Source: an uncultured virus (IMG/VR IMGVR_UViG_3300044825_003205) (lineage: Duplodnaviria > Heunggongvirae > Uroviricota > Caudoviricetes). From it: a stretch of 64,000 bases of DNA. The notes under the pieces are model-generated. The model saw only the letters and a list, made by a program, of their open reading frames with translations, had not been told where the DNA came from and made no database searches. Made by a program: the position numbers and the translations under genes. This document shows positions 16,379 through 51,475 of the stretch, piece by piece. Where the stretch lies: positions 62,001-126,000 of the IMG/VR virus record IMGVR_UViG_3300044825_003205; one strand, given 5' to 3'. Each line of letters starts with the position of its first letter. Within the stretch, counting starts at the first letter, position 1.

Positions 16379-19300
16379 TTATAGTCCGTATTTGGATTTA
16401 TCTGCATTGAAGTTTTGTAATACTTCCGAACCTGATAATGATTTACTATACATTCTCACAACACCCATTCTACCATTCAACCATTGAGAGAATTGTCCCC
16501 CGTTAAATGAACCCAAATACAAAGGTGATGTTGTGTTTTTAATGCTTGCAAATGAATGTGAATTACTTCCAATCAAATTACCGTTTATGTAAAGTGCGAT
16601 TGAATTACTTGCAACATTTGTCCACACACCTACAACTTGGTACCACGTATTGATACTCAAACCAGTAAGTGGTGATGTTACTGAGGTTACTCCTCCATTA
16701 CCTACTTCCATAAAAGTATTACTATTAGCAACTGTTCTTAAACCGTAACCCCAATCCGCAGAGGCTCCACCATCAGTTTTCGCTATTAGTATTCTGCTTG
16801 CACCCGCAATTACCGAATGATTTACCCAAAACTCAATAGACCAATCACTGCTACCTGGTTCTAATAAAGCATTGTCGGCAACACTTATTTGTGATGACGT
16901 ACCATTAAATGTAAAGTATGGAGATGTAAATGTAATGTTAGACATTGTTCCATTCAAACCATTACTTGATAAATCATTTATCACGGTTCCACTACCAGAA
17001 TAACTTGAAGGGTTACTTGGGTCATAATATAACACAAGGTTACTTGTTACAGGTTGTCCTGGTGTAGAACTTGGTGTTGGTGAAGATGTTGTTGTGTTAG
17101 TTGGAGTATTAGTTGCGGTCACGGTTGGTGTTGAGGTACTTGTTGGAGTTGGTGATATTGTGTTTGTTGGTGTTATTGACGGTGTTGGTGTGATAGTGGG
17201 GGTTTCAGTATTTGTAGGTGTATTAGTTGCAGTCGGTGTCATTTCGATAAAACTTGGAGATAAGAAATCATACATTTGACCTATTTCAGAAAAATTCAAT
17301 TTTCTATTGTAAAAATATAAATTCGCCAAATATCCGAATGATTGTCCTGCCAGAAGGTTATTACCCCACATCACGTGAGTATCTCCTCCGGCTCCAAAAG
17401 CAACAGAACCAACTTGAGTTCCGTTTATGTAAAATACACTTGATGTATTATCTCCGACCACGGCATATTGTACCCAAACATCCTCATCTGCCGTAATATT
17501 ATATCCTGAATCTTGGAATGTGAAATTATAATAACCTAAATCATCAGTTCCAACTTGAACTAAGATTGGAAGATTGTTATTCGTTCTCAACAAGGACCTC
17601 CATCCAGCAGAACTTGGGATTACTTTAGCCCATGTTACATATGTATATCCTGTTGTTGGTAAGGATGGTCCTGTACCAATAACTTGAATTGACTCTGTAC
17701 CCGTACTACAATCAAAACATTTAATTCCATTAAGAGTTGTAAAAGTTGCACCTCCCGATAAAGTGTTATCAAACGAACCTGTTAAATCAAATACGGTAGT
17801 CCCTGACCCAGGGTAACTTTCAGTTTTATTAGCATCCAATTGCATAATAAGTCCTGAAGTTACGATATTAGGTGTCGGAGTTACGGTTGGGGTATTAGTT
17901 GGAGTTTCGGTTATTGTTGGTGTTATAGTTGGTGTAGGTGTTTCTGTTATTGTTGGAGTTAGAGTTGGTGTTTCACTTGGTGTGTTTGTTGGAGTTTCTG
18001 TTATCGTTGGTGTTGTTGTTGGAGTAGGTGTTTCAGTCTCAGTAGGAGTGTTAGTTGGAGTTTCGGTAGGAGTTTCAGTTACACTTGTTGTCGGTGTATT
18101 TGTTAATGTTGGAGTTGGTGTGAGAGTTTCACTTTCTGTTGGAGTCTGTGTAGGAGTTTCAGTTGTTGTTGGTGTAGGAGATGGTGACGAGGCTTGTATT
18201 AAAATACCAAAACCATCCTGTTGTAAAATCATAGAATAATTTTCCTGTAACAAGAAGTTGGAGTCAGGCATCGTTGGAGTTGGAGTTGGGGTATTTGTTG
18301 GTGTTTGTGTTGGAGTTACATTTGGACAAGGAATTATCGAGTCTATATAACCTGTGTTTCCAGTAACAATATAAACGTTTGTTCCATCAGAATAATATCC
18401 ATCAGTAACATAAAAATATGGGTCCAAAGAATAATCTGAGTATATATGGTCTCCTACAACTAAAGATTCACTTGGAGATTGATAATAAGTTGTAGTTGAT
18501 GCCGAACAAGAAGCATTTGGGTCTAAAAAATTATACCCTAACTGAAGAGTAGTTGGGTTATATATTGAAGGGTCAGGACAAGGTCCGACATAAGAATAAC
18601 GACCATCTCCCGATATAATTAACACGCTGTTGTAATCACCGCAAAAGTCATTACTCCAATCTTCGACTCCTGTCATTTGAATAGTGTTACCGGAACAATC
18701 AGTAAATTCGAATGTAGGATTTTGTGGTCCAACATAAATAAAACGTATTATTGAACAAGATTCAAAAATTGTGGTGTGAGATGGTGTCACAGTTGGTGTC
18801 ATAGTTGGTGTTTGAGTATTTGTTGGTGTTTGAGAAACTGGAATTAAAGTACAATCTATCAATCCTCCATTTTCATTCAATATTGCCCAATTATAAACTA
18901 TATCACCATCATAATAACTTATATCAATACCACCTATTGCAATTCTAGTATTTTGAAGTTGACCAATAAATAATACCCCTGTTGAAGAAATAATGCCATT
19001 ATCGAAAGTATTATCGAAACTACCATTCGAATTCAATCTAATTATCTTATAAGAAGATACTCCCGAATAAGAAGTGAATTGTCCTGCCGCAAGTATTTTA
19101 CCATCAGTCTGTAAACCAATCGATAAAACTTGAGCATTAAATCCTGTTCCGTAGTTGAATGTGTTGTCAATTGTGGCGTCAACATTCAACCTTATAATTC
19201 TATTTGCAGAAACACCTGAATATGTTGTAAATTGTGCACCTGCACAAATAATTTTACCATCAGGTTGTATTGCTAATTCACTGACTGTATTGTTGAATCC

Positions 19301-21910
19301 GTTTGTTGTATTGAATGTGTTGTCGTAGCTACCGTTAGAATTAATTCTTACAATATGTTCCGCAACATTACCGTTATAATTTGTAAACGAACCTGCAACA
19401 ATCAATTTACCATCAGATTGTCGTGCAATAGAGAAAACCGAATTATCAGGTAATCCATTCAAGAATGAATTATCTAAAGTTCCATTACTGTTTAATCTAC
19501 AGAAATAATTTACAGGATTTCCATCATAATTTGAAAACTGACCACCTACTAATATTTTATCATCAGGAAGTACGAGTAACGATGTAATTGTACCATCAAA
19601 TCCTGTACCTGTAATGAATGTTGCATCATAAGAACCGTTTGTATTCAATCTCACAATTCTTCCTGTTGGATTTCCGTCAAAAGAAGTGAAATTTCCACCA
19701 TAAACGAATTTACCATTGGATTGAGCTTCAAAATATGTTGGGTGTCCCCCAACAAATCCCGTACCCAAATTATAACTTGTATCTATATCTCCATTCAAGA
19801 AAAGTCTTACTAAACCTGGAGAGCTAGTACCACTAAAAGTATTGAAAGAACCTGCGACATATAGTCTATCACCATATTGGTCAATGTGGTTCACATTACC
19901 ATCGTTTGGTCCGTATTCTACACAAGCTTGAGAAGTACTTGGAGTAATAGTTACGGTAGGTGTAAATGTTGGTGTAATTGAAGTTGTTGGTGTAATTGTA
20001 GGTGTAGGTGTGACCGTTGGTGTTGGAGTAGGTGTTGCTGTTGCGGGTACTGGTGGTTCTTCACATTTTAAACAGAATGGGTCTAATAACCCGTATCTAT
20101 TTTTCAAGAGTCTGAAGTTGTGTCTAACTTGACCAGCGTTCAATGGTTCAGAATACATTCTAAATGCGCTAATATCACCAATGAAACTACCACCAAAAAA
20201 CTTTTCCAAACGAATGTGAGTTGTCAAGCCCGAATATTCAGTTTCATCTAAAATTTCTGTTGTTAAACACTCAGGGTCTTGTTGATAGGTCATGCCCGTT
20301 AAAGTCACGGGACAACCTGAAAGTGTTAAGTTATCGTGTAATCCTTGTGTTCCCCCACCCAAAGAAATATTATATGCAACACCCACTTGTGTTTCACGAG
20401 CGGTGTTTAGAGGTCTTGGTATAATTTCTTCGAAGTTTTCAACAACCAAAAATAATTTACCATTGACGTAAAATCTAAAAGAACCTAATCTATCATTTTT
20501 TTCATCTACCCATCTTTCAGTGATATTAACGACTTCGACTGTCGCTGGGTCATAAGGTATTTCTTGTGTTATTGGTGGTTCAATAAGACTAACACTATTG
20601 TGAGCTGATGACGCAGTGAATACTGTTTTGACTATTTCACCCAACCCACCTTTATAAAGTAAGTCACAATCATCCCAATAGGTATATCTTTGGAAGACTG
20701 CATCAATCTGAACCCATCTTTCTTCTTGACTATAAGTTGTTCCTGAACAATCATCAAAAATTCCTCTTGTTGAACACCATTCAGTTACACTTGTTCCGGT
20801 AGTGTAAGTTATTCCTGTAGAACAAACTCCGGTAGTTTCACAACCACCAGTTATTCTATAAGTTTTTACACACAACCTTGGACTACCTGTATCACCACTG
20901 AGTCTCAAAGATAAAGCATTCGAAACACCATCATATAACGGGTTTAACTCAGGGATGGATGCATATGTAGTACAATTACAAGGACAATTTCCACAGGCAC
21001 AATTCTGAGAAGTAACTCCAGATTGTTGATAAACATATCCACATGTTGATGCGGTATACCCTGTTTGAGAACAACCGCAAGTTTGTAGACAATTTAATCC
21101 TTCTGTTACTCTTGTATAACCCGAATCAGTTATCGGTGAACCATTTGCATAATGATAAAATTTGTTTTCTGCTCTAGTTCCATAATAGAAGAAAATACCT
21201 TTGTTGTCAGGATACCTTTCATTCAAACCTACGCTCGTATCACCTGTCCATCTGTATCTTAACATGAACTCTGATGACCAACCTAAATTAAATCTTTCAG
21301 GTAAAACTTCATAATCATAACCAAATGACTTGTAAAATCCTTGGTAAAATCCTCCGTCGAATTTTATATAATTTCCGACAGCATTTGCATCATTATCAAT
21401 TGATAAATTATATGTGTAAGAATCGTCGTTATATATTCTATCAGAAGTAGTTGTGAACCCTGTGATTGGGTGCATCTTAAATCTTCTATCGTATTTGTAT
21501 CTTGAAAATTTATCCGCAGTAGAAGTATATAATCCTGTATTTAATTCTATCGTTTCGCCTGAAAATCTTTTTACCAAACCATTATCCATCCCTGTCAGAC
21601 CAACATCACACAATTCAGTTTTTGCAGAACAAACCAACAAATCGATTCCTAAAGGGTTCCAATAATTTTCTGAAACAATTACGTCACTATCAAAGTTACC
21701 ACAATTGATACAATTAATAGTGTTTGGACTATTGATGTCAAAATTTAACGGCATCCTATTGCCGTCATCTTCACCTATTAAAAATGGTGAAAAAATAACT
21801 TCTTCATCGTAATCACGTTCATCCGATGCCAATGAGATATCGGTAATTTCATTTAGAGGTTTAAGATATAACCTCTTGAACACATATTGATTTATATTCT
21901 GATATGACAT
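16379..21910 (-). CDS. large modular virion/adhesin protein: Cys-rich LamG-like N-terminus, delta-60-repeat beta-propeller, Thr/Pro linkers, two C-terminal LamG domains
   Basis: Repeated Q.DGKI..GG.F..Y.G....I.RLN.NGS.D.TF units (about 18860-19910). LamG signatures ([27 protein letters not shown]) and long TPT tracts. Confidence 0.8.
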
Positions 21911-24536: not shown

Positions 24537-25748
24537 ATGTCAAAAATTAAAGTTTTATGTTTACCGTCCGACCGAACAGGTGTCGGAAAATTTAGGTCTG
24601 TTGACCCTCATATTGCATTACAAAATCAATATCCTGATGATTTTCACGTAGATATCGTATATGACCCCCCAATGGAAGACGATAACTTTTGGAAAGGTTA
24701 TGATATTATTTCCTACCACAGAAGTATCGGTACCGACTTCGATTTAGGTAATTTAATGATTAAAAAACTAAACAGTATGGGTATACCTACTGTTTGCGAT
24801 ATTGATGATTATTGGATGCCAGGTAAAGAACACCCAATTCATGACATAATCAGGGTAAATAAAATCAACGAAAAGATTGTTAACAATATACGTGATTCAA
24901 AATATGTCACAACAACGACAACTTTATTTGCAGACGAAATAAAGAAGACAAATAAGAATGTTACAATTTTTCCCAATGGGATAAATCCAAACGAAGCCCA
25001 ATTTAAAGAACCCACACCTGAATCTGATAGAATCAGAGTTGGGTGGTTAGGTGGTTCTTCACATCTTCATGATTTACAACTTTTGGAACAATCGTTCAGT
25101 AAATTGATTCCTTTGAAAGATAAAGTTCAATATGTTCTTTGTGGTTTTGATACCAGAGGAAGTGTTACTGAAATTAATAAGGAAACAGGAGAACAAAAAA
25201 GAAGAGATATTAAACCTGAGGAAACTGTGTGGGCAACTTATGAAAAAATATTCACTCAAAATTTTCAGATTATATCAGAAGACTACAAAAAACATCTTTT
25301 GAATTATAACCAAGATGAATACTCTGACATGGTAAATGAATCGTATAGGAGAGTATGGACTCAACCCGTGACATCTTATGCAAAAAATTATTCCAAATTT
25401 GATATTTCTTTGGCTCCGCTAAAAAATCATATGTTTAACAGAATGAAATCTCAATTGAAAGTAATTGAATCAGGTTTCTATAAAAAAGCATTAATTGCAT
25501 CAAATTTAGGTCCTTACACAATAGATTTGAAACATTGTTTAAAAAATGGTAACTTTGTCGACGGTAATGCTTTATTAGTAGATGAAAACCGTAACCACTC
25601 TGATTGGGCTAAGTATATCGAAAAACTTGTGAAAAACCCTAACTTAATCAAAGATATGGGTGAAAGATTGTATGAGACAGTTAAAGATATCTATGACCTT
25701 AAAGTTATTACCAAAAACAGAGCAGAATTCTATAAATCTATTATATGA
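24537..25748 (+). CDS. GT-B glycosyltransferase
   Basis: DIDDYW, RVGWLGGSSHLHDL and DISLAPL...FNRMKSQLKVIE, typical of phage GT-B enzymes. Confidence 0.8.
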   Translation: MSKIKVLCLPSDRTGVGKFRSVDPHIALQNQYPDDFHVDIVYDPPMEDDNFWKGYDIISYHRSIGTDFDLGNLMIKKLNSMGIPTVCDIDDYWMPGKEHPIHDIIRVNKINEKIVNNIRDSKYVTTTTTLFADEIKKTNKNVTIFPNGINPNEAQFKEPTPESDRIRVGWLGGSSHLHDLQLLEQSFSKLIPLKDKVQYVLCGFDTRGSVTEINKETGEQKRRDIKPEETVWATYEKIFTQNFQIISEDYKKHLLNYNQDEYSDMVNESYRRVWTQPVTSYAKNYSKFDISLAPLKNHMFNRMKSQLKVIESGFYKKALIASNLGPYTIDLKHCLKNGNFVDGNALLVDENRNHSDWAKYIEKLVKNPNLIKDMGERLYETVKDIYDLKVITKNRAEFYKSII

Positions 25749-27052: not shown

Positions 27053-28690
27053 ATGTCACTAACAATTGGATTTTCAACAAGAAGGAAGAACCCTGAATTT
27101 GTGGAGTATTTAAAACAAAGTTCAGGATTTAAAAAAATTCAAGTAATTGAAAAAATTAACAACGGTGAAAAATCCCTCAGTCAAGTATATAACGAAATAC
27201 TTTCTGAGTCGGAAAATGATATAGTTGTTCTTTGTCACGATGACATATATTTTGACACACCGTCTTGGTACTACAAGATTATCAAACATTTCACAAAAAC
27301 AGATTTTGGTATATTAGGTGTTGCAGGAACAACAGATTTATCAGAAACTGGACAATGGTGGGTAACGAACAAAAGAAGGAACATGGTCGGGATTGTCAAT
27401 CATGAAAATGAAGGAAAGAAATGGGAATCGAAATATTCTGAAAATTCAAATAATTCAATAATTCCAACAGTCATAGTTGATGGTTTATTTATTGCAGTAA
27501 ACAAAAAAAGATTAAACTCAGGATTTATCGAAGAATTTGAAGGATTTCACTTTTATGATTTATCATTTTGTTTAGAAAACTTTTTAAAAGGAACCAAAGT
27601 AGGAGTTATAACAAATATTAGAATTACACACAAATCTATTGGGATGACCAATGACCAATGGGAACAAAATAGAATTAAGTTTGTTCAAAAATACAAAAAT
27701 AACCTACCAACAAAAGTTCCATTTAATGTTAATAAAAAAATAAAAGTTTTAATAGGATGTTTATTTTTCCGAAATTTTACAGGTTCCGAACTGTATGTCT
27801 ATGAGTTAGCCAAAAACTTAATTACATTAAATTGCGACGTAACAATAATCTCGCAAATAGGGGGGCCTCTAACAGATATGGCAAAAAGATTAGGAATAAA
27901 ATGTGTGTCTTTTGAACAGGCTCCAGGATTCAAATTAGGAGACGGTAAGTGGGAATTTAATGGTCCAAATGGAATTGAAAAATCAAAACCAAATGTGATG
28001 TATAAGGTATCGGATGTAAATTTTGATTTGATTCATATACAACACCGACCAGTTGCGGAAAGGTTGTGTGAATTTTATCCTGATATTGACAAAATCTACA
28101 CAATACACTCAGAAATAATAGAACTGGAACACCCAATCAAACATGAGTCAATAAAAAAATATATTGCTATCAGACCTGAAATAAAAAATTACATAGTCAA
28201 TGATTTTGAAATTCCTGAAGAAATGGTCGAAGTTATATATAATCCCGTCGATAATGAAAAATTCAAACCTAAACAGGGTCAGATTAAACCTTCTTTACTC
28301 TTTGTTGGGACTATAGACTATTTGAGAAGAGAAACCATTATGGATTTATTAGATTATACCAAACAAAATGATAAGGAACTTTGGTTGATGGGGGAAGATA
28401 AAAGTAATTATCTTTCTATTCTACAGGAACAACCAAATGTTAAATATTTCAAACCGTCATGGAATGTTGAATCTTTGATTAATCAATGTGAAGAAACTGC
28501 AGGTATCCAATTAGGGAGAACAACTATTGAAAGTTGGATGTGCGGTAAACCAAGTTGGATATACAAAGTTAATTCATTTGGTGTGGTAGAATCAAAAGAA
28601 AAATTCGAACCTCCACAGGATTTGGAAAAATATCATTCATTGAATGTGTCAAAAAAAATTAAAGAAAAATACTTAGAAATATTATTATAA
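27053..28690 (+). CDS. two-domain glycosyltransferase (GT2-like plus GT4-like)
   Basis: N-terminal LCHDDI, GILGVAG, VDGLF and FHFYD; C-terminal TGSELY..ELA and VIYNPVD...F.P. Confidence 0.8.
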   Translation: MSLTIGFSTRRKNPEFVEYLKQSSGFKKIQVIEKINNGEKSLSQVYNEILSESENDIVVLCHDDIYFDTPSWYYKIIKHFTKTDFGILGVAGTTDLSETGQWWVTNKRRNMVGIVNHENEGKKWESKYSENSNNSIIPTVIVDGLFIAVNKKRLNSGFIEEFEGFHFYDLSFCLENFLKGTKVGVITNIRITHKSIGMTNDQWEQNRIKFVQKYKNNLPTKVPFNVNKKIKVLIGCLFFRNFTGSELYVYELAKNLITLNCDVTIISQIGGPLTDMAKRLGIKCVSFEQAPGFKLGDGKWEFNGPNGIEKSKPNVMYKVSDVNFDLIHIQHRPVAERLCEFYPDIDKIYTIHSEIIELEHPIKHESIKKYIAIRPEIKNYIVNDFEIPEEMVEVIYNPVDNEKFKPKQGQIKPSLLFVGTIDYLRRETIMDLLDYTKQNDKELWLMGEDKSNYLSILQEQPNVKYFKPSWNVESLINQCEETAGIQLGRTTIESWMCGKPSWIYKVNSFGVVESKEKFEPPQDLEKYHSLNVSKKIKEKYLEILL

Positions 28691-28692
28691 AA

Positions 28693-29475
28693 ATGAAATT
28701 ATACAATAAATTTATTATAATAGTTCCAGTTTATAATGCAAAAAATTTGATTGTTGACTGTTTATCATCAATATTCACACAATCATTTGAAGATTTGGGT
28801 GTAATAATTAGAGATGATTGTTCTACTGACGGTACTGATATTGAAATAAAAAAATTTTTAGGAGTTGACGGTGATGAAGTAATTTCTAAGTTTAATAACA
28901 AAGACTTTATTTTTATCAAGAATCAAAAAAAACTATACCCTGTCGGAAATACGTATGAAAGTGTCATCAACTTTGTTGATAATCAAGAATCAATAATAGG
29001 CGTTGTTGATGGAGATGACAAACTCTATGTAAGAACCGCAGTTTCCAAAATAAATAAAGTTTATGAAAACGAAAATAAATGGATGGTATGGTCACAACAC
29101 CAAAATTCCAGTGGTGGAATAGGGTCATCAAAACCATTACCTGAAAATGACATAATTTATTCGAGTAGAAATTATTGGTCTGTTACTCATTTCAGGACTT
29201 CCAAGTGTTTCTTATTCCACAAATTAAACAAAGAGGATTTGATGGACCCTTTTGATAAAGACACATACTTCAAGTTTTGTGGTGACGCATCTTTTTTATA
29301 TCCATTCTGCGAAATGTGTGGAAACGAAAAATCATTCTTCTTAAATGAAATTTTATACTACTACAATAATACACTTCCAACCAATGAGCATAATAAAAAC
29401 TTCAACATGGCAGTCAAGTATGGATTACACGTAAAATCCAATGGAAAAAAATATACTAAATTATTTATTTCATAA
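28693..29475 (+). CDS. GT2 glycosyltransferase
   Basis: IIVPVYNA, DDCSTDGT and VDGDD. Confidence 0.88.
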   Translation: MKLYNKFIIIVPVYNAKNLIVDCLSSIFTQSFEDLGVIIRDDCSTDGTDIEIKKFLGVDGDEVISKFNNKDFIFIKNQKKLYPVGNTYESVINFVDNQESIIGVVDGDDKLYVRTAVSKINKVYENENKWMVWSQHQNSSGGIGSSKPLPENDIIYSSRNYWSVTHFRTSKCFLFHKLNKEDLMDPFDKDTYFKFCGDASFLYPFCEMCGNEKSFFLNEILYYYNNTLPTNEHNKNFNMAVKYGLHVKSNGKKYTKLFIS

Positions 29476-29499
29476 AATTTGGTTTTAAAATAAAATAAA

Positions 29500-30162
29500 A
29501 TGAATGAAGTTACAGTTGTTTTCACATCATGTGGAAGATTTGGTTTTTTAAAAGAAACTGTCGATTCTTTTTTATCTCAAAACACTTATCCTATTAAAGA
29601 GTATATTGTAATTGAAAATTCGGGAAATTCTCAATCCTTTTTCGAACTCAGTAATATTTTCAAAAACATAGAAAACGTCAAGATTATCATTAATGAGCAA
29701 AACATAGGACAAGTTTCTAGTATTGATAAAGCCTATGAATTCGTAGAAACGGATTATATTTTTCATTGTGAAGACGATTGGAAATTTATTAATTCAGGAT
29801 TCATCGAAAAATCTTTGGATATTTTGATTGAAGTTCCTAACATTAGTAATGTGAATATTAGGAGAAGGAATGACAACTCCAAAGGTAGTTTTCATCCTAT
29901 AGTGGGTCCATTTAAATTGAAAGACCAATCAAAATACTACATTTATCAACAAAATTATCTTGGGGAGTGGCACGGATTCTCGTGGAACCCAGGTTTAAGG
30001 AGAAATAAAGAGTATCAATTAGTGAAGCCATATAAGCAATATACAAATGAACAAGGTGTAAATCAAAAAATGAAAGAGCTTGGTTTCTTTTCCGCTTGTT
30101 TAGAGGATTCTTATTGTATTCACATAGGAGAAAATAGTTCAACATTTAAAGCAAATATGTAA
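29500..30162 (+). CDS. GT2-like glycosyltransferase
   Basis: TSCGR..FL..T..SF, YIFHCEDDW, FSWNPGLRR and HIG. Confidence 0.8.
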   Translation: MNEVTVVFTSCGRFGFLKETVDSFLSQNTYPIKEYIVIENSGNSQSFFELSNIFKNIENVKIIINEQNIGQVSSIDKAYEFVETDYIFHCEDDWKFINSGFIEKSLDILIEVPNISNVNIRRRNDNSKGSFHPIVGPFKLKDQSKYYIYQQNYLGEWHGFSWNPGLRRNKEYQLVKPYKQYTNEQGVNQKMKELGFFSACLEDSYCIHIGENSSTFKANM

Positions 30163-31109
30163 TGAAAAAAATTCTAATCACAGGAGGAAGTGGTTTTTTA
30201 GGAAGGAACTTAGCCTTAAGACTAAAAAACGACTATGAAGTATTTCTTGCTTCAAGAAATAACAAACAAAATTTTAGTTCAGGTAACTTTACAGGATGTA
30301 AGGTTTTACCTATGGACGTATCAAGCATAGAATCTGTCAGAGATGTCTTTTCTGAAGTTAAACCAGATATCGTTATTCACGCAGCCGCAACTAAATTTGT
30401 TGATTTGTGTGAGAGGTTTCCAATGGAAACTATAGATGTTAATGTTATCGGTTCTCAAAATGTCGCAAGAGTTGCAATCGAAAAAAATGTTGAAATTGTA
30501 GTTGGTATATCAACAGATAAAGCAGCACCACCTATTCGAAATATATACGGGTTGAGTAAATCTACAATGGAAAAACTTTTTTGTTCCATGAACGAAAAAT
30601 CTAAAACAAAGTTTACCTGTGTTAGATATGGTAATGTTGTTTGGTCCACAGGCTCTGCATTTCCGATATGGAAAACTATGTTAGAAAAAGATGGCATAAT
30701 AAAATCAACCGGACCTGAAATGAGGAGGTTTTTCTTCACAGTTGAACAAGCGGTTCAGTTAGTCATAGATGCAATAAACAATATAGACAAAATAAAAGGA
30801 AAAGTTTTATCAAGAGAAATGAAGTCCGCTCAAATTAGTGACATACTTGATGTATGGGTAGAACTTTATGGCGGAAGGTGGGAGCAATCTGAAGGTAGAC
30901 CAGGAGAAAGAAATGATGAATATTTGGTCGGAGAGATTGAATTAGAATACTCTACAAAAGAAGATATAAATGATGTTTCCCACTACATTATAAGTCCAAA
31001 CACTAAATCTAATGAAAAGTTAACACAAGTATTTCATTCAGGTAACTCTCCAAGATTGACTAAAGAAGAAATAATTAATTTGATTTTAGCAAAACCTGAT
31101 GTTTTATAA
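30162..31109 (+). CDS. UDP-GlcNAc 4,6-dehydratase-like SDR (PseB/FlaA1/CapD family)
   Basis: ITGGSGFLG, HAAATK, ISTDKA, YGLSK and VRYGNV. Confidence 0.85.
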   Translation: MKKILITGGSGFLGRNLALRLKNDYEVFLASRNNKQNFSSGNFTGCKVLPMDVSSIESVRDVFSEVKPDIVIHAAATKFVDLCERFPMETIDVNVIGSQNVARVAIEKNVEIVVGISTDKAAPPIRNIYGLSKSTMEKLFCSMNEKSKTKFTCVRYGNVVWSTGSAFPIWKTMLEKDGIIKSTGPEMRRFFFTVEQAVQLVIDAINNIDKIKGKVLSREMKSAQISDILDVWVELYGGRWEQSEGRPGERNDEYLVGEIELEYSTKEDINDVSHYIISPNTKSNEKLTQVFHSGNSPRLTKEEIINLILAKPDVL

Positions 31110-37128: not shown

Positions 37129-38184
37129 ATGGAAAATAACTTAAAAGAAAAGGTTCAACAATCTATAGAGAACTTAAAAAATAAGTCCTCGAGGATTTAC
37201 TTCATGGTTCAAGACACCAAAGGAAATGCTAAAGCTTCTGTTAGATATATCTATCAAGTTGCTATGTCATTGAAAGAAGCAGGTTACAATGCAATAATTC
37301 TACACGAAAAAAACGACTACACTGGAGTAGGTGGATGGATGGGTCCTGAATATATGGAAAACATTCCACATAAGTCTATTGAAAAACAAAACTTAGAAAT
37401 TGCACCTGAAGACTTTATTGTCATACCTGAATTATTTGGTTATGTTATGGAACAAATCAAAAATATCCCATGTGGAAAAATAGTTATGACACAGTCTTAC
37501 AAATACATGTTAGAAACCTTACAACCTGGACAAACATGGCAACAATTTGGTTTTTTTAAATGTTTAACAACCACCCAAAAACAAAAGGAATATATTGAGG
37601 GCATCATGAAAAATGTGAGTGTTGATATACTAACTCCATACATTTCGGATGTTTTTGAAAAAAGAGAGTTACCTCCGATGCCAATTATTGGTATCCATTC
37701 AAGGGAACAATCCGATACAATTAATTTGATAAAAACTTTTTATCTAAAGTTTCCACAATTTAGATGGTTCACTTTTAGAGATTTGAGAGGTCTCAGTGAA
37801 AAAGAATTTGCGAACTCTTTAAAAGAATGTTTTTTATCTGTTTGGATTGATAGAGAGAGTGGTTTTGGGACTTATCCTTTAGAATCAATGGCCTGTGGTG
37901 TTCCTGTTATGGGACTTATTCCTGATATGTTACCTGAATGGATGGTGGAAGAAAACGGAATTTGGGTTGATGACATTACTATGTTGCCAGATTTTATTGC
38001 CGATTTTACACAAAACTGGTTAGAAGATAATATCAAACCAGAACTATATTCTGGTATTGATGCAACCTCAGCAAAATATAAAAATAGAGATGAATTTAAC
38101 AGTAAGAATTTAGAACTTTTCGATTCTTACATAAAAACAAGAGTTGAGTCTTTAGAATCACAAATTTCAAAATTAGAAGATTAA
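37129..38184 (+). CDS. GT-B (GT4-like) glycosyltransferase
   Basis: VIPE; ESGFGTYPLESMACGVPV. Confidence 0.75.
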   Translation: MENNLKEKVQQSIENLKNKSSRIYFMVQDTKGNAKASVRYIYQVAMSLKEAGYNAIILHEKNDYTGVGGWMGPEYMENIPHKSIEKQNLEIAPEDFIVIPELFGYVMEQIKNIPCGKIVMTQSYKYMLETLQPGQTWQQFGFFKCLTTTQKQKEYIEGIMKNVSVDILTPYISDVFEKRELPPMPIIGIHSREQSDTINLIKTFYLKFPQFRWFTFRDLRGLSEKEFANSLKECFLSVWIDRESGFGTYPLESMACGVPVMGLIPDMLPEWMVEENGIWVDDITMLPDFIADFTQNWLEDNIKPELYSGIDATSAKYKNRDEFNSKNLELFDSYIKTRVESLESQISKLED

Positions 38185-38185: not shown

Positions 38186-38992
38186 ATGAAAAATAAATTA
38201 CCAATTTCAGTAATTCTGCCAATAAAATCTGCAATAGTAAAAGACTTTGAAGATTATTTTGACAAAGCAATAAAGTCTATAATATCGAATGATGTAATTC
38301 CTTCTGAGCTAGTAATTGTTCATACACAAGAAGAAAAGTTAGTTAACTTTTTGAATGAGTATAATTTCGAGGAATTGAACGTAAAAAAAATAAAATTTGA
38401 AGAATCTCCAAATTATTGTTCACAAGTTAATTTTGGTATAAAAAGTAGCGAATACGAATGGGTTTCAATATTTGAATTCGATGATGAATATTCATCTATA
38501 TGGTTCCGAAATGTGAAAAAATACATGGACGCATATCCGACCGCTCAGGTTTTACTACCTGTCGTTGTTGATACTGATTCGAAAGGAATGTTTGCAGGAT
38601 TTACAAATGAAGCAGTCTTTGCAGCAAACTTCACACAAGAATTAGGATATCTAACGAATGAAACTTTACAAAATTATCAGAATTTTCAGACCGCAGGTTC
38701 AGTTATAAAAAAACAAGTTTTCGAAGATTTTGGTTATTTCAAGTCATCAATCAAGTTAACATTCGTATATGAATTTCTTTTGAGATTAACATATAACTCA
38801 GTGAACATAATGACTATTCCAAAACTTGGTTATAAACATTTGAACATGAGAGAAGGTTCAATATTTTGGTCTTACAAAAACTCATCAGAGAAAATGCTCG
38901 AGGATGAAGTTAAATTTTGGTTGGCAACAGCAAAAAAAGAATACTTTTTTGTTGAGGATAGAACCATAAAATATGAACCCCAAGAATCCTAA
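38186..38992 (+). CDS. GT2-like glycosyltransferase
   Basis: ISVILPI, EWVSIFEFDDEY and EFLLRL. Confidence 0.7.
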   Translation: MKNKLPISVILPIKSAIVKDFEDYFDKAIKSIISNDVIPSELVIVHTQEEKLVNFLNEYNFEELNVKKIKFEESPNYCSQVNFGIKSSEYEWVSIFEFDDEYSSIWFRNVKKYMDAYPTAQVLLPVVVDTDSKGMFAGFTNEAVFAANFTQELGYLTNETLQNYQNFQTAGSVIKKQVFEDFGYFKSSIKLTFVYEFLLRLTYNSVNIMTIPKLGYKHLNMREGSIFWSYKNSSEKMLEDEVKFWLATAKKEYFFVEDRTIKYEPQES

Positions 38993-40125: not shown

Positions 40126-42309
40126 ATGGCTCTTTCTTTACCACAACAACAATCTCAGATTGAAAACAGACTGACGGCACTGAAAACTTATAATGAGGTT
40201 TCGGATGCACAAAAGAAAATTCTTTCTAAAGCAGGTAATTCTTTTTCAAATGTTGGAAATAAGTTTTCCTCTCAATTAAATAAAATTTCGGAGCAACAAA
40301 AACGATTCCAAAGAGATGCCCCTACATCGATGGATAGGGTACTGAATCTTTTGAATATCACTAATGGTGCTGGACCTGAAAGTTTCAGGTTTTTAAGGAG
40401 GGCATTAATTCAAACATTAGTTGAAATTGGTCCTCAAATTAACAAGATACTTGCTGAAGAAACAATAAAGGCTTTAGGATGTTCACAAGAACAAACTTAT
40501 ACTGGAATTAATGTTGGTGAGGTACAAGTACCGAGTCTTGCATTACTTCCATCAAATCAAGGTATCTATGTTCCTTTAAAAAATATTGATTTATCGGGTA
40601 GTTTGAAAATTCCAACCCCCGAAGAAAGTGGTGTAAAGGAAAATCTATCAGACGTAAACCCTACCGATGTATTATTCAATTTTCAATCAACCTTGAAAGG
40701 ATGGTTGGGTAAAATATACTACGAAAAAGAAATACCTTCTAAGTCTGACAAATTTGTGCCATATGGAGGTGCGGTAAAATATCCTATGTTAAAAGCGTTG
40801 AGACAAAGGACTCAATCCCAAGGTCAAACCTACGAAAATAACTATGGTGCATACTATAATGGTAAATCGGGTGATTATTTATTCGACTTAGTTTATACAA
40901 ACCAAGGTGGTTTAGGGGAAAGTGGTGATTTTCTGAGAGTCTTTCTTTTAGATAGAGAAGGAGCACCTAAAAATCCTTCAGGATTCTCGATGAACAATGT
41001 GACAGAATTCGTTCAGGATTACTATTCAACGATTGAAACTTTTGCATTACCTCAAGTATTAGCAACTACAATAAATTATCTAACAAATTTTGCAGATATA
41101 AAGGCGAGGGTTGGTTTTGCACAAATGGAGGCACAAAATAAGTTTGCATTACTTTTGAATAGAATTTTAGGACTTTGCTTTGACGACAGAGAAGAAATCG
41201 ATGTTAGTGGTAATGCAAAAGTTGGGGAACTCGATGGGGTGGATGATGCTTTTTTTGAATTTACTGAAGTAGATTTGAGAAACATCGAATTCAATATTGC
41301 TGACGCTCAACAAGGTGTTGTAACCTTTATAGATTGCGACAATGTCAAGCTACCCGTAGATGCTGACTCAATTGCGACACAAATTGTAGAATTTTCAGAC
41401 AATTTACCCACACAAACAAAGGCGGAGCAAGTTGATGCAATAGAAAAAATAATTGATTCAATTACTAAGGACCCGAAGTGGAAACTTTTATACCCGAATA
41501 CCGCGGGTATCGACGTATCTATTAGTAAAAATTTTATCAAACAACTTCCTGTGGCCTTAGCTTCTTCCATACTAAATCCAAAGGTGTTATTACCTCTCAT
41601 GACTATGTTTAAAGTATTGGAAAAAAATGTAACCGATGATGCAAACGATATTATCAGACAACAGAATGAACTGATATCATCAGCAAATACAATATTAAAA
41701 TCAGGTACAACAATCGGTCAACAAGTTTCTAAAGAGATAAATGATGGTGTGGACTTCGTAAAAAAGAATAAGACGTTTGTCATTGCTTTAGTATCAAGAA
41801 TTTCTGCAATATTCATCGAAACTCTTTTCGAAATTTTAAAAAGGGAAATCTTTGTTTTACTTGAAGTTATAATAAGAGACATTAATAAGTCTGCAACCCT
41901 AAAAAAATATGCAATCATTCTGAGGTTAGTTCAATTGGCGTATGTAATCGGTAGATTTGTTAGGGATTATAGGAAATGTAAATCTCTATTGGATGAAATT
42001 GCAATGTTGTTACAAATGATAAGTAATTCAGTTGGGGCAATAAGACTTCCAGCATTTCTCAATTTATTTGCGGCTCTTCTACCAGGATTTTCACCCGAAA
42101 GAGCAACATTGAATGTTATTGAGGAGCTTCAAAAACTTGGAATACCTACCGGTCCAGGGCCAGACGGTTCTGACAATTTAATGAATCAGTTTGTTAAATC
42201 AGTTATATCTGGTATGGATTCCGAAGAAAGTCAAAACGGTAAAGTACAAACATCTGTAGCATTAGCTCCTCCAATCGGATTAATAAGCACATACGGAAAA
42301 AAAATGTAA
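40126..42309 (+). CDS. large hypothetical protein, probably structural
   Basis: 727 aa ORF in the late operon upstream of the gp5-like gene. Confidence 0.6.
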   Translation: MALSLPQQQSQIENRLTALKTYNEVSDAQKKILSKAGNSFSNVGNKFSSQLNKISEQQKRFQRDAPTSMDRVLNLLNITNGAGPESFRFLRRALIQTLVEIGPQINKILAEETIKALGCSQEQTYTGINVGEVQVPSLALLPSNQGIYVPLKNIDLSGSLKIPTPEESGVKENLSDVNPTDVLFNFQSTLKGWLGKIYYEKEIPSKSDKFVPYGGAVKYPMLKALRQRTQSQGQTYENNYGAYYNGKSGDYLFDLVYTNQGGLGESGDFLRVFLLDREGAPKNPSGFSMNNVTEFVQDYYSTIETFALPQVLATTINYLTNFADIKARVGFAQMEAQNKFALLLNRILGLCFDDREEIDVSGNAKVGELDGVDDAFFEFTEVDLRNIEFNIADAQQGVVTFIDCDNVKLPVDADSIATQIVEFSDNLPTQTKAEQVDAIEKIIDSITKDPKWKLLYPNTAGIDVSISKNFIKQLPVALASSILNPKVLLPLMTMFKVLEKNVTDDANDIIRQQNELISSANTILKSGTTIGQQVSKEINDGVDFVKKNKTFVIALVSRISAIFIETLFEILKREIFVLLEVIIRDINKSATLKKYAIILRLVQLAYVIGRFVRDYRKCKSLLDEIAMLLQMISNSVGAIRLPAFLNLFAALLPGFSPERATLNVIEELQKLGIPTGPGPDGSDNLMNQFVKSVISGMDSEESQNGKVQTSVALAPPIGLISTYGKKM

Positions 42310-42310: not shown

Positions 42311-42514
42311 ATGACAAAAGAAGAATTAGATGAAATAATTGATTCGCAAAAGGATTTGAAAAATATACCAAATTCGACTTTGATTTCACAGATGGATTTA
42401 TTGACTCAAGATTTTGACGATACCAAAGAAAAAATAATAAGCATGACTTATTATTTAGATAAAGTGGAAGAATTATATAATAATATATTATCAGAATATC
42501 AAAATAGAGTATAA
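42311..42514 (+). CDS. small hypothetical protein
   Basis: 67 aa coiled-coil-like ORF filling the gap between genes. Confidence 0.6.
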   Translation: MTKEELDEIIDSQKDLKNIPNSTLISQMDLLTQDFDDTKEKIISMTYYLDKVEELYNNILSEYQNRV

Positions 42515-44028
42515 TGTCTAAACAACTATTTTTTCAATGCGAAGTCTTGAATAATCAAGACCCTCTTATGCTCGGAAGAGTAAGGGCTAGATTAATTTCG
42601 GATAACTATCAGGACATGATTAAGTCTTTTGATAGACCACCATGGAATGAACAGAAAGACCCATGGACCGAAAGAGACCCATTCGTATTTAATCCATTAT
42701 TACCCTATTTCATCTATCAAGTCCCTCAAGTTGGAGAATTAATTAATGTCCTGTATTACAATTCAGATTTTCAATATAGAAATCAATATTATGTACAAGC
42801 TACTTACTCAACACCCACAACATCAAATTTTGAATATTATGTAGGTGGACTAAAATTCAATGGGTGGGGTGTACAGTTTACCAACCCTAAACCAATAAAA
42901 AACGCCGATGGAAGTTATGAGAATAATACTTCAAAAGGCGTATTCCCAGAACCTGGTGATAATTCAATTTTAGGAAGAGGAAATTCTGACGTTGTTGTAA
43001 AACCAAACGGAGTATTAATTCGTTCAAATAAGTATAAAGGAGAGCTCATTCCGAATGTATTACCTGTTGCAAATAACAAAGGTGGTTTCTTACATTTAGA
43101 AAAATTTGATTTTACCAAAACAAAAGATAAAAAGAAGACCTATACTGAACTTATTGAAGACATTGTCGTTTGTAAATATTTGATTGAATATTCTATAATA
43201 AATCCCGAGAATGAACAAAATAGTTACACTGGTTTTGTGTTTCTTTATAAATTGAGACCTGACCAAAAAGTTAACTCTCAGGAATTGAAAGTTGATTCAA
43301 ATGTTGATAATTTAAAATCTTTGATAATTTCAGAACCATTCAGAGCATTGACACTCGACCAAACTGCTGAATTTATAAATGGGTTTATAAATGAAATAAA
43401 TTCAAAAAATAAGTTTAAAGGTAGAGAATTATTTACTGATGAATCAGTCAATAAGTTCCCTATTTTCTATAGACCCACGCCTGACTTTTACAATCTAATT
43501 TCATCCAATCCATCCCCAACAACTGCAAACATAAGTTATCTATTTGCAAACAAACTTTATAATAGAATAAAATTAAACGTTGAGTCTCCAAATAGTGGGT
43601 ATGGTTTGATATACGCCCAAAATAAAGTAGGATTACCATTCAAATTGAATAGAACTAATATTCAAAGTTACAAATACCCCAACAACCCCCAAACATTCGG
43701 AAGCTTTGCGGCAGACAAAGTTTTTTTACTTTCACAGGTTTCTTCAATTCCAGGTAAAGGAGTTATCAACTTTGACGGCACAGTTTATGGTATTTCTGCG
43801 GATAAATACATCAAAGAAATTATACCTAAAACTTCAAGTTCAGTCAGGGGAGAAGAACTTATGGAACTATTAAACTTAATAGTTAGTTTTTTACTTACAC
43901 ATACACACAACTATCCTATGTTACCTCCAAACCCAAAATCTTATGCCGGTGTTACGGCTGAAGATGTATTGACAGAGATACAAAATGCAACAAATAAAAT
44001 TCTTAATGCCAATATAAGACTGAATTGA
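42514..44028 (+). CDS. baseplate hub/central spike protein (T4 gp5/gpV-like)
   Basis: N-terminal OB-fold pattern V.NNQDPLMLGRVRA...PLLP....PQVGE.INV; C-terminal VRGEEL..LL...LTHTH spike-tip motif. Confidence 0.65.
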   Translation: MSKQLFFQCEVLNNQDPLMLGRVRARLISDNYQDMIKSFDRPPWNEQKDPWTERDPFVFNPLLPYFIYQVPQVGELINVLYYNSDFQYRNQYYVQATYSTPTTSNFEYYVGGLKFNGWGVQFTNPKPIKNADGSYENNTSKGVFPEPGDNSILGRGNSDVVVKPNGVLIRSNKYKGELIPNVLPVANNKGGFLHLEKFDFTKTKDKKKTYTELIEDIVVCKYLIEYSIINPENEQNSYTGFVFLYKLRPDQKVNSQELKVDSNVDNLKSLIISEPFRALTLDQTAEFINGFINEINSKNKFKGRELFTDESVNKFPIFYRPTPDFYNLISSNPSPTTANISYLFANKLYNRIKLNVESPNSGYGLIYAQNKVGLPFKLNRTNIQSYKYPNNPQTFGSFAADKVFLLSQVSSIPGKGVINFDGTVYGISADKYIKEIIPKTSSSVRGEELMELLNLIVSFLLTHTHNYPMLPPNPKSYAGVTAEDVLTEIQNATNKILNANIRLN

Positions 44029-44047: not shown

Positions 44048-45550
44048 ATGTCAATACTTAGGTCATACGTTAATAGAAATAACACAATAATTTCAGATTC
44101 ATATGCAAACACGGCAAGAAATCCCGTGATGCAATTGAATTTTGGTTCTTCGGATTTAATTGCTCCAAGTTACGGTTATACCAGATTTATATTTGATTTG
44201 GATTTAGATTATTTGAGACAACAAATACAAAGCGGATATATTTCAACAGGTTGTACGACTGGTATGACCCATATTTTTCAAATGACAAATACATCATCTT
44301 TCGATGAGGATTTGATTAACGAAGATATGAGTGATGGTAAAAGAAGAGCATCTTCTTTCGATTTGATTTTGTTCAGAATACCTAAAACCTCGGGAACAAC
44401 CGGAAACATCCAGCCTTGGGACGAGGGAGTAGGTTACGATTATACAGAATCGAATAAAAACCAAAATGGTTTGATGGGTGGATTATATCCAATAACATAT
44501 GTAGACCCAAGGTCGTATTCAGACAGACCTTCAAATTGGTATTTAACTACAAATGTATCTGAGTGGTCTCAAGAGGGAATATACAACAACAGAAATTTGG
44601 GGATTGTAAATTATTCCGCACTTACAATTGTAGATAGACAACACTTCGAATTCGGTAATGAAGATATCAATTTTGATATGAGTGATGAAATCAACAATAT
44701 CTTGTTTGGAAATTTAACAGGTGTTACAGGATGGGGTATCGCGTATCTACCTGATGTCGAAAACATAAGCGGATTGACAATTTCATACAGTGTGGGATTC
44801 TTTACCAGACACACACAAACTTTTTATCAACCATTTTTACAGACAACATACAACGACTTAATCGAAGATGACAGAAATATTTTTGTCAAAAATCAAACTA
44901 ATAATTTATACTTATACATTTATCAAAATGGAGTACCAGTAAATTTAGATAATTTACCAACAGTCAGAATCGAGGATAGATTAGGTGACCCTGTTTCAGG
45001 TATGACATCATTATCCACATGTTTAAGAACAAAAGGGGTTTATGAGGTTACAGTTCCAAACGGTTTTACGGGATACTCATCACCTTGTGAATTTTATGAT
45101 ATATGGTCAGGATTAACTCTGAACGGACAACCTTTATCGAACGTTCAAAATCAATTTGTCCTTCAAGATTATTCTGCTAGAGTACAAATTGGTACAAACA
45201 CTAAAGAGCCTGAAAAATTCGGATTCGACTTTTATGGAATATTACAAAATGAAAAAATATTAAATACCGATATCAGAAAAGTTGGTGTAACTATTAAAAA
45301 GTCCTACAGCACACAACAACTATTACAGAACTTAGAATCCTTTTATCGTATCTACGTTAGAGAAGGGAATACTGAAGTTCAAGTACAAGATTGGACCCCA
45401 ATCAATAGAACACCAAATGAATATTATTTCATGTTCGATACAAGAGATAAAATTCCTAACCAATACTATGTCGATATCAAAGTCAACATAAGTGGTGATG
45501 TAGATACTTATAAGAAACAATTAACATTTCAAATTGTTAACAAAAAATGA
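44048..45550 (+). CDS. putative structural protein (beta-rich; WDEG.G.D motif)
   Basis: 500 aa ORF with the TATTTAT motif upstream; rich in [ST][GA]xT. Confidence 0.6.
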   Translation: MSILRSYVNRNNTIISDSYANTARNPVMQLNFGSSDLIAPSYGYTRFIFDLDLDYLRQQIQSGYISTGCTTGMTHIFQMTNTSSFDEDLINEDMSDGKRRASSFDLILFRIPKTSGTTGNIQPWDEGVGYDYTESNKNQNGLMGGLYPITYVDPRSYSDRPSNWYLTTNVSEWSQEGIYNNRNLGIVNYSALTIVDRQHFEFGNEDINFDMSDEINNILFGNLTGVTGWGIAYLPDVENISGLTISYSVGFFTRHTQTFYQPFLQTTYNDLIEDDRNIFVKNQTNNLYLYIYQNGVPVNLDNLPTVRIEDRLGDPVSGMTSLSTCLRTKGVYEVTVPNGFTGYSSPCEFYDIWSGLTLNGQPLSNVQNQFVLQDYSARVQIGTNTKEPEKFGFDFYGILQNEKILNTDIRKVGVTIKKSYSTQQLLQNLESFYRIYVREGNTEVQVQDWTPINRTPNEYYFMFDTRDKIPNQYYVDIKVNISGDVDTYKKQLTFQIVNKK

Positions 45551-49675: not shown

Positions 49676-51475
49676 TTATCTCAACTCTTTCAAATCGAAT
49701 GTTCTAACGCCATCAACTGTGATTCTACCATAGAATCTGTTGTTCACCATTTTCTTAGCGTATCTAGTCATGATACCTTTGATTGGTGTAAAGTTGAATG
49801 GATTATACATTGTTGGTGTAAGTTGTAAAGGAACATATGGTGCGTAGATGTAACCAGTGTCTAATAGAGACGTTCCTTTGTGACCAAGAAGAACTTGGTT
49901 AGCTGGGAAGTAAGGGTCTCTATAAACTTGATAACGTCCTGCAAGAGTACCAACTCTTTCAATACCCATGTTATATTGGTCTTGCTCAGGAGCTGCGTTT
50001 GAAACGTGGAAATACTCCAAGTCATCAAAAATCGCAGAAATTTCTGAAGATACTACAATCCAGTTAGCACCACCTCTAAGAGTTGATTTGTGGATTTGTG
50101 CAGAAATTTGGTTGATTGCTGTGATAAGAGTTTGGTTCCAGTCTTTCTGAGTATAAGGAACAGCGTTAGTTCCCAATCTCTTCCAACCGTTGTAATCCCA
50201 TCTTAAGTTCCAAGCCGCACCTTTTCTAAGGTCTCTCAAGATTTCTCTATCGATTTCAGCCGCAACTTGCTCAGACAATAAAGCTGTCAATTCAGCTTCA
50301 GCGTCGATGTTGTGGAAAGCCGCAACGTCTTGTGCCATTTCTGGTGACCATTGAGCTCTTAATTTTCTTTCAGTCACAGAAACTGTTACTGATTGAAGGT
50401 CAAATGAAACCTCACCAATTCTATCTTCAAATTCCAAGTTTTTGTAGATTCTATAAACAGGAACAAACGCATTGTTGTTTCCATTTGTAGACACAAAAGT
50501 AGAACCTGAATAACCATCAAGTGAGTTTTGTCCGACAGTACAAGGAACTTGTAAGTCAACCTCCAAGTAGATGTCACCATTTACATCACAAAGGTTGTCA
50601 TATTGACCACCACCTGTTCTAGAGTTAGGGAACGCTAAATTTGCATTGTTGTTACCATACTGAACAATACCTTTACCATATCTTTGAGTTACAACTCTGA
50701 AAAGATAAGGATTAGATGTATTAGCTGATGTGAAAACGTTATCTACAGAACCGTAAATAGTCAAATCAGACAAGAAAGATTCGTTATCAATTGGGTTACC
50801 GTCTGGACCGATTAATTTACCAGCAGCATCTGACGCAAAACCTGACATGATAATCAATACTTTTCTGTATGTATTTTCTGTATATGCAGCTGGTTCTAAA
50901 TTCAATGTTGTAGAATTCCAAGCTGCAGTAACTGCAGTACCTGTAACAGCAGAAAACTGACCTTTTGAATAATCAAACAAACCTGGTGGGTCTAATGCTG
51001 GTTCATTACCTTCGTAAAATCTATCATAAAGGTCTCTACCTTGATTATAGTTATAACCTTCATTTGGTGTTTGGTCTGCCTCCATATTTGGAGAACCGTA
51101 AGGTGCATAGTGTCTGTTAGGTACACCTGTGTCTACGTAATTTTGAATTTGAGGTACAAAATAGAACAATTTACCGATAGGTAAGTTCATTGCTTGTACA
51201 GATACGATGTCGTTAGCCAATAACTTAGAGAATACTCTTCTGATTATTGGAAATACAACTGTTTCGAAAGAACCTGAGTCAGAAGTTGTTGAAGCTTCGT
51301 TTATCAAGTGTGAAGCTTGGTTTTCATACAACTGAGCTACGTTCTCTTTCATGTGACCCTTAAGTCCTTCTAGGAAACCTAAGTTGTCCCATTTGTTAAT
51401 TGTGTCTTCTTTGATAACTTTAAGGTGCTTAAGACCAATATTACCAACAAGACCTGATTCTAATAAAGCTCCCAT
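49676..51475 (-). CDS. major capsid protein (T4 gp23-like)
   Basis: LYENQ, P.IRRVF..L.ANDIVSVQ.M..P.G..F, RKLRAQWSPEMAQD..A.H.IDAE.EL, EIDREI, YAPYVPL, GIMTRYA. Confidence 0.96.
   Translation of the reverse strand: MGALLESGLVGNIGLKHLKVIKEDTINKWDNLGFLEGLKGHMKENVAQLYENQASHLINEASTTSDSGSFETVVFPIIRRVFSKLLANDIVSVQAMNLPIGKLFYFVPQIQNYVDTGVPNRHYAPYGSPNMEADQTPNEGYNYNQGRDLYDRFYEGNEPALDPPGLFDYSKGQFSAVTGTAVTAAWNSTTLNLEPAAYTENTYRKVLIIMSGFASDAAGKLIGPDGNPIDNESFLSDLTIYGSVDNVFTSANTSNPYLFRVVTQRYGKGIVQYGNNNANLAFPNSRTGGGQYDNLCDVNGDIYLEVDLQVPCTVGQNSLDGYSGSTFVSTNGNNNAFVPVYRIYKNLEFEDRIGEVSFDLQSVTVSVTERKLRAQWSPEMAQDVAAFHNIDAEAELTALLSEQVAAEIDREILRDLRKGAAWNLRWDYNGWKRLGTNAVPYTQKDWNQTLITAINQISAQIHKSTLRGGANWIVVSSEISAIFDDLEYFHVSNAAPEQDQYNMGIERVGTLAGRYQVYRDPYFPANQVLLGHKGTSLLDTGYIYAPYVPLQLTPTMYNPFNFTPIKGIMTRYAKKMVNNRFYGRITVDGVRTFDLKELR

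Follow-up and report, generated by a model that had tools for sequence, protein, structure and literature searches.

A recurring four-residue motif in structural proteins

The stretch of DNA analyzed here (the window, 64 kb of IMG/VR record IMGVR_UViG_3300044825_003205) is part of a 134.6-kb contig of an uncultured T4-like jumbo phage, and our subject is a short protein motif, [ST]-[GA]-x-T, that recurs in the products of its structural genes. The contig encodes a Gp23 capsid protein, a T4-type portal, a protease, a terminase, PolB and about 20 sugar-handling genes. Complete relatives are 296–366 kb long, and the nearest named phages by capsid protein, Mel-JY01 (42% identity) and Flavobacterium phage immuto_2-6A (41%), are distant. 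A sequence-only reading of the window had claimed that the motif is strongly enriched in virion proteins and is a new glycosylation sequon recognized by a phage-encoded modifying enzyme, most plausibly one of the glycosyltransferases (GTs). Below, paired figures (a v b) are observed against expected copies; for the counts in the window, the expectation comes from composition-keeping 50-residue local shuffles with low-complexity stretches masked. The genes concerned are the following:

1128..2249, plus strand: head-tail adaptor (neck); 1 motif copy, not significant
14035..16353, minus strand: collagen-like Gly-Ser/Thr fibre; 5 motif copies outside the repeats
16379..21910, minus strand: 1843-aa appendage/virion protein with a beta-propeller, LamG domains and Pro-Thr stalks; 18 motif copies
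40126..42309, plus strand: 727-aa core protein, probably structural; 2 motif copies
42514..44028, plus strand: 504-aa core protein, probably a baseplate component; no motif copy in the window
44048..45550, plus strand: 500-aa core protein of no known family, probably structural; 8 motif copies
49676..51475, minus strand: Gp23-type major capsid protein; motif at 50942, 50927, 50717 and 50498, insertion at residues ~111–345
55613..57442, minus strand: portal; 2 motif copies in the low-complexity tail
63011..63919, minus strand: 302-aa Pro-Thr stalk protein; 2 motif copies, marginal

Within the window, nine structural genes hold 39 copies of the motif where 8.3 ± 2.7 are expected, and the 54 other genes hold 3 (7.1 ± 2.5). 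On the whole contig the figures are 111 v 35.7 for 30 structural genes and 8 v 11.4 for the 76 others. This grouping was drawn after the first motif counts, and the counts were repeated without it (119 v 49.6 for the entire contig proteome) and on genes selected by composition alone (86 v 25.2). The excess thus survives composition-preserving shuffling, which the sequence-only reading had named as a check. When all three-letter patterns were scanned over nine spacings on the contig, SG.T ranked first, TG.T second and SA.T fourth, while the neighbouring patterns [ST]GT (1.2-fold), [ST]G..T (1.2-fold) and the reversed motif (1.25-fold) were flat. Because the codons of the motif vary freely, with both Ser codon families in use, and shifted frames are flat (+1, 1 v 3.8; +2, 7 v 7.9), except for one antisense frame (24 v 11.5), the excess is a protein-level signal. 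Its copies are scattered, not arrayed.

Every copy listed in the earlier reading was found again, and its principal examples stand. The first 610 residues of the 1843-aa protein, a conserved N-terminal region (window 20222–21628), contain 13 of its 18 copies, among 25 [ST][GA] dipeptides and with 1.5 expected; with low complexity masked the entire protein has 17 v 3.98, and its best matches in nine genomes have 103 v 17.5. For the 500-aa protein the count is 8 v 0.64 (at 44246, 44258, 44390, 44615, 44717, 44768, 44996 and 45107), and its ten orthologues together have 41 v 6.6, spread over 17 alignment positions. The four copies in the major capsid protein (v 0.79, p = 0.0095; residues 175, 180, 250 and 323) all lie inside the insertion. 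The minor examples are also present, albeit mostly not significant when taken singly: the neck (1 v 0.21, p = 0.19; one position is common to five of nine orthologues), the 727-aa protein (2 v 0.63, p = 0.13; orthologues 9 v 2.5), the portal tail, where no copy is left once low complexity is masked (orthologues not enriched, 5 v 3.9), and the 302-aa stalk protein, which is marginal (2 v 0.32, p = 0.035); the collagen-like fibre, which we group with them, has 5 v 1.27 (p = 0.009). As had been claimed, DNA polymerase, terminase and SNF2 helicase have no copies, though merely 0.3–0.6 are expected in each, and the Bacteroidota sequon D-[ST]-[AILVMT] is not enriched on the contig (49 v 58.4). The 504-aa protein exemplifies site turnover, with five copies in its orthologue in genome G004 and 11 v 3.5 across nine genomes. 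As a side observation, the Gly/Ser/Thr repeats of collagen-like proteins (window 14035–16353 and G000:C1:6583-12054) read [ST]-G-x-S and thus fall outside the motif, and the 1823-aa protein of the latter locus has 13 v 35.9 in a whole-protein shuffle.

Specificity, spread and location of the motif

The shape of the motif was determined by varying each position over all 20 residues in 89 Ser/Thr-rich proteins of three genomes (G000, G004 and G005). Only S (237 v 65) and T (222 v 84) are enriched at position 0, only G (332 v 102) and A (127 v 47) at +1, and only T at +3 (459 v 148), where S reaches 162 v 128. Position +2 is free, except that P, R and H show no enrichment. In the deeper clade, C also occurs at position 0 (7 v 2). 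Isoleucine, leucine or valine at −1 raises the excess to 6–7-fold, a preference that disappears without the final T: hydrophobic-[ST][GA]-x-T was counted 277 v 48, and the same start lacking the last T 402 v 386.

Relatives were sampled as ten clade genomes (capsid identity to the window 50–72%) and three of a deeper branch (G039, G041 and G042), picked with the help of a 68-row FastTree tree that served solely this purpose. In all 13 genomes the motif is enriched in Ser/Thr-rich proteins, by 2.1–4.1-fold once repeated contexts with similar flanks are removed. Among matched orthologues, structural sets are enriched 1.9–3.8-fold and non-structural sets 0.3–1.8-fold. The motif is likewise frequent (42 v 17.3) in a contig whose genome bears a yak rumen title, and a 41-kb contig (G037) that holds all three of the GT genes discussed below and few structural genes was uninformative (11 v 8.7). 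The outgroups immuto_2-6A (149 of 160 kb covered), P-SSM2 (100 of 252 kb) and Mel-JY01 gave backgrounds of 1.26-, 1.29- and 1.97-fold, respectively.

Within the structural proteins, the excess is confined to certain regions. In 41 capsid sequences it falls in the insertion (129 v 34.8), with none in the HK97 core (11 v 11.2) or at the N-terminus (1 v 2.4). A structure model of the capsid protein (pLDDT 75.1) matches T4 gp23 (Z 21.7, rmsd 2.9, 256 residues aligned) and places the insertion between two long E-loop-like strands; the counterpart domain inserted there in T4 is described as forming surface protrusions (PMC9546572), which suggests by analogy that the insertion faces outward. In the sheath, the excess is in the variable middle (residues 101–700; 56 v 16.7), and the conserved ends fall short of expectation (2 v 6.4). 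The tube (0 v 1.6), gp6 wedge (2 v 4.5), protease (0 v 1.2), hub and gp25 are at or below expectation.

Individual sites change place among orthologues. Across 12 orthologue sets, 256 sites fall on 152 alignment positions, of which 95 are occupied in one genome only and 17 in at least half of them, and the alignment columns that hold sites are less conserved than the rest (0.384 against 0.474). Furthermore, Ser/Thr-rich composition does not by itself bring the motif along: within the same phages, the 16 Ser/Thr-rich proteins with a signal peptide, as called by a simple heuristic, have 9 v 19.1, whereas the 154 without one have 976 v 308.8. The signal-peptide proteins are encoded by G004, G005, G016 and G020 (for example L087:699-1873 and L324:928-8585), and their predicted peptides make export to the host surface probable. 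The sequon D-[ST]-[AILVMT] shows no excess in the Ser/Thr-rich proteins of these phages either (353 v 405.8).

A different motif occupies the same place in distant phages. In 108 distant gp23-type proteins, the insertions have 105 v 91.9 for [ST][GA]xT and 210 v 84.3 for [ST][GA]S, the latter being unenriched in the cores (28 v 37.4). This sister motif is enriched 3–4-fold in the Ser/Thr-rich proteins of two cultured phages, immuto_2-6A (117 v 42) and Mel-JY01 (81 v 20), and more so after I, L, V or F (64 v 10.6 and 28 v 5.3, respectively). Both immuto_2-6A (NC_055915.1; L117, L119, L345) and Mel-JY01 (PP395634.1; L118, L120, L123, L124) carry it in the capsid insertion, and each has a GT cluster of its own. 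A shared core combined, at an equivalent surface position, with a lineage-specific third determinant is the trace expected of an enzyme with shifting specificity, and is hard to obtain from folding alone. Given its all-or-none specificity at three positions, its restriction to apparently outward-facing regions, the turnover of its sites, its absence from exported proteins and the different tag that sister lineages have in the same place, [ST]-[GA]-x-T has the character of a linear tag recognized by some reader.

Glycosyltransferases that accompany the motif

The phage encodes its own GTs, as judged from the gene families of the window and from PHROG, PDB and Atlas matches. The loci concerned are:

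24537..25748, plus strand: core GT-B (GT4-like) glycosyltransferase, PHROG 7162; candidate reader or extender
37129..38184, plus strand: core GT-B glycosyltransferase, AmGGT/Agt relative; candidate extender of a protein-bound sugar
38186..38992, plus strand: core GT2 glycosyltransferase immediately after 37129; its position alone makes it a candidate initiator
27053..28690, plus strand: GT2-like + GT4 fusion; widespread but patchy
12685..13959, minus strand: GT60-type enzyme (PF11397); does not track the motif
5885..12688, minus strand: variable cassette of sugar- and methyltransferase genes; patchy in relatives
28693..35480, plus strand: variable cassette with GT2, GT10-like, epimerase, nucleotidyl- and methyltransferase genes; patchy in relatives, a possible source of strain-specific outer sugars

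Only three sugar genes, 24537, 37129 and 38186, are present in all ten clade genomes. They also occur in G039, G041 and G042 (the two shortest fragments lacked some), and hence in all 13 motif-bearing genomes. Of 28 clade records, 26 contain 37129 and the other two are 30% fragments; fragments aside, the search turned up no clade genome without the three GTs. On one contig the three genes form a single run. Profiles of the three gave no match in the three outgroups but one weak GT2 match in P-SSM2 (immuto_2-6A, P-SSM2 and Mel-JY01 carry other GTs), and none of 50,697 phage records matched 37129 or 38186 in a tblastn search.

37129 matches PDB entry 8xsg over positions 43–334 of 355 (E = 3.7e-6 as a single sequence, 4e-17 as a profile) and is, by this similarity, a distant relative of Actinobacillus AmGGT/Agt. 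The related ApAgt is described as extending the glucose on cytoplasmically glycosylated adhesins (PMC12159676). The model of 24537 (pLDDT 86.6) resembles generic GT4 folds (best Z 29.3); GtfA, SdgB and AmGGT rank lower (Z 19.6–20.0), and no protein-acting family is prominent in this fold search. 38186 matches generic GT2 structures.

Other sugar genes were considered as initiating readers and rejected on their distribution. PF11397, the family of the GT60 enzyme, was detected in 2 of 14 records and is absent from G014 and G015, which are complete and bear the motif. This enzyme more likely serves the Pro-Thr stalks; it adjoins long Pro-Thr stalk proteins (window 12685–21910, with a further stalk protein at 63011–63919), and together they probably constitute another, independent glycosylation system that is restricted to a sub-clade. 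The 27053 fusion was not found in G014, G016, G020, G039, G041 and G042, and an HtrL-like gene and both variable cassettes are similarly patchy.

Homologues of 24537 also occur farther afield. Chitinophaga prophages carry a distant one (25–28% identity) between terminase and portal, a placement that would suit a virion target, and there it is accompanied by further GT genes and by methyltransferase-like ones (L352–L354, about 7800–10900). Three viral homologues (L366–L368) do not come with the motif (13 v 11.3). A gammaproteobacterial genome contig has an isolated homologue of 47% identity, near which no phage genes were recognized (L347:8213-9499), and the homologue in G037 is tandemly duplicated (L349:9992-12450).

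A candidate glycosylation sequon and its alternatives

The explanation that we favour, with moderate confidence, is a sequon-directed O-glycosylation of the virion by a phage-encoded GT. From the enrichment, specificity, location and turnover of the motif and its co-occurrence with three genes we infer the glycosylation, its acceptor residue, the order of the enzymes and the purpose, as follows. A soluble phage GT would recognize (I/L/V/aromatic)-[S/T]-[G/A]-x-T as its acceptor sequon in the cytoplasm of the host. The sugar would probably be placed on the first Ser/Thr, since this is the part common to the motif and its sister, with the small residue giving access and the downstream Thr serving as a recognition point. 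Either 24537 or 38186 may start the chain, the Agt-like 37129 would probably extend it, and the variable cassettes could cap the glycans with strain-specific sugars. Selection would then act on the number of tags over the outer surface of capsid, sheath, baseplate and fibre, not on fixed positions, and the outcome would be a glycan coat. Compared with the sequence-only reading, the motif does behave like a tag and the choice of enzyme has narrowed to three candidates, while the match between GTs and motif is one clade-level coincidence and not independent support.

Several observations weigh against this explanation. Motif and enzymes mark one and the same clade, no members that lost either were found, and the distribution of the motif is matched just as well by every other core gene. 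24537 and 38186 match generic GT4 and GT2 structures alone, and AmGGT, the closest solved relative of 37129, is described as taking only oligosaccharides and not glycopeptides (PMC12159676). The three GTs sit among nucleotide-metabolism genes (dUTPase, PhoH, 5'-nucleotidase) and could act on DNA or on the host surface instead; a search for PF12851 (TET/JBP) scored 0 of 5, with no match in the controls either, and one for the thymidylate synthase family, of whatever subtype, 3 of 5. The Chitinophaga prophages with a 24537 homologue have 69 v 45.7, equalled by a control pattern (68 v 45.7). The separation of protein classes is also imperfect: in G021, matched structural (11 v 5.9) and non-structural orthologues (7 v 4.0) do not differ, SNF2 (6 v 2.7) and scaffold (5 v 2.5) orthologues slightly exceed expectation, and the non-structural cytoplasmic proteins of ten genomes do not avoid the motif (46 v ~50 in sum). 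Moreover, there is some excess outside the clade, in Mel-JY01 (25 v 12.7; excluding S at +2, 19 v 12.4, 1.5-fold), in P-SSM2 (63 v 50.8 overall, 10 v 3.9 in three orthologues) and in the cores of the 108 distant capsid proteins (67 v 47.8). Finally, exposed loops had been expected of the sites; in the capsid model, one of the four lies in a loop and three lie in or at short predicted strands.

The motif might be a tag whose reader is something else: an enzyme of the host cytoplasm, some other core protein of the phage, a different chemistry, or a small decoration protein that docks on it. The tag-like properties would fit any of these, several core genes belong to no family, and a host enzyme modifying phage tail proteins has been reported (PMC13445384). 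We nevertheless consider this unlikely, as the three GTs are core genes while other sugar genes come and go, and the motif is not the same in two phage lineages with a Bacteroidota link, which is given by its record for immuto_2-6A and is putative for the present clade. In addition, a free hydroxyl followed by G or A would suit an acceptor site, and no kinase or sulfotransferase family was seen among the core genes scanned.

A folding signature, that is, a strand-end, bulge or hairpin pattern of Ser/Thr-rich beta surface domains amplified by clade-specific domain families, would agree with the hydrophobic residues at −1 and +4, which fit strand geometry, with the three strand-associated capsid sites and with the 1.2–1.5-fold outgroup background. 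It seems distinctly improbable to us, given that Ala is accepted beside Gly and the x position is free, unlike the residue preferences of a glycine turn, that exported beta-type Ser/Thr-rich proteins of the same genomes are depleted, that site positions are unconserved and that the excess survives the removal of repeated contexts. The homologous capsid insertion of distant phages lacks the motif and has a different one, and the presence of the sister motif at this equivalent place argues against a folding signature.

That unmodified Ser/Thr pairs confer a surface property (hydration, ice or polysaccharide binding), or that the motif is a DNA-level or compositional artefact, could draw on the Ser/Thr-richness of the motif proteins and the antisense frame mentioned above, but is very improbable, as local shuffles keep composition, neighbouring patterns and the +1 and +2 frames are flat, codons vary, copies are scattered and the contig of the yak-rumen-titled genome bears the motif too; the artefact form is largely refuted.

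Assuming glycosylation, the system would resemble several known ones in part. Bacteroidota O-glycosylation, from a possible host phylum, is likewise sequon-directed and O-linked on Ser/Thr; it targets exported proteins, whereas the motif described here is depleted in them. Freeman et al. (2023) reportedly dealt with the glycosylation of mycobacteriophage virions. In mycobacteriophages of the Che8 type, as cited in PMC12619734 and PMC11256854, phage-encoded GTs place glycans on capsid and tail subunits as a proposed shield, as would be the case here; there the glycans sit at the C-terminal ends of the capsid and tail tube subunits, whereas our motif is scattered over unrelated outer proteins and missing from the tube (0 v 1.6). 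The Actinobacillus NGT–Agt system pairs a soluble cytoplasmic initiator with an extender in one operon and reads a short sequon with a downstream hydroxy residue, as would be the case here, but its acceptor is the Asn of N-x-S/T (PMC12159676), which is unenriched on the contig (246 v 236), and the gene beside 37129 encodes a GT2 and not an NGT. No Pfam match to NGT (HMW1C-like) was found among window and core genes, whole genomes not having been searched for it. TibC/AAH autotransporter heptosyltransferases also hyper-O-glycosylate a surface protein at many sites in the cytoplasm; TibC, however, is a dodecamer with an iron finger and a beta-helix substrate (PMC4358343), while the sites here are in unrelated folds, and no TibC-type match is among those listed for the three GTs. 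Chlorovirus PBCV-1 similarly coats its major capsid protein Vp54 with methylated sugars by virus-encoded machinery, but in a eukaryotic host, mainly N-linked and, as described in PMC4691112, with no common sequence pattern recognized.

By gene content alone, the phage fits the moraphages, aquatic jumbo phages of 200–307 kb with predicted Bacteroidota hosts, four core glycosyltransferase groups and genes for PolB, dUTPase, PhoH, ClpA, gp13, gp6 and gp25 (PMC12619734). In that paper, the core GTs are assigned no target and no virion motif is mentioned. Likewise, a literature search with poor coverage of subscription journals yielded no description of [ST]-[GA]-x-T, and the word 'sequon' is absent from the main text of a 2026 preprint on huge-phage proteins. 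The motif is therefore undescribed in the literature searched, whereas virion glycosylation by phage enzymes is itself already known from mycobacteriophages; the new elements here are a shortlist of three genes with the link to Agt, the comparison with exported proteins and the occurrence of the sister motif in phages that have been cultured.

Phage particles are usually regarded as bare protein, with mycobacteriophages as the cited exception. If the motif is a sequon, sequence alone would predict the modified proteins and residues in a large, widespread phage lineage, and this would account for three GTs being core genes. A soluble cytoplasmic enzyme that O-glycosylates a tag of four residues would, moreover, be a useful tool for glycoengineering. 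More broadly, and as a tentative proposal, a branch of large T4-like phages may wear a virion-wide glycan coat, built by small soluble phage enzymes through lineage-specific sequons on a hydrophobic-[S/T]-[G/A] core, [ST][GA]xT in the present clade and [ST][GA]S in immuto_2-6A and Mel-JY01. The enzyme at work would then be a cytoplasmic O-glycosyltransferase of a sequon-dependent kind that has not been described, and the density of tags would be a trait that evolves. As the sister motif is present in a cultured Flavobacterium phage, this general idea is testable without culturing the phage of the window.

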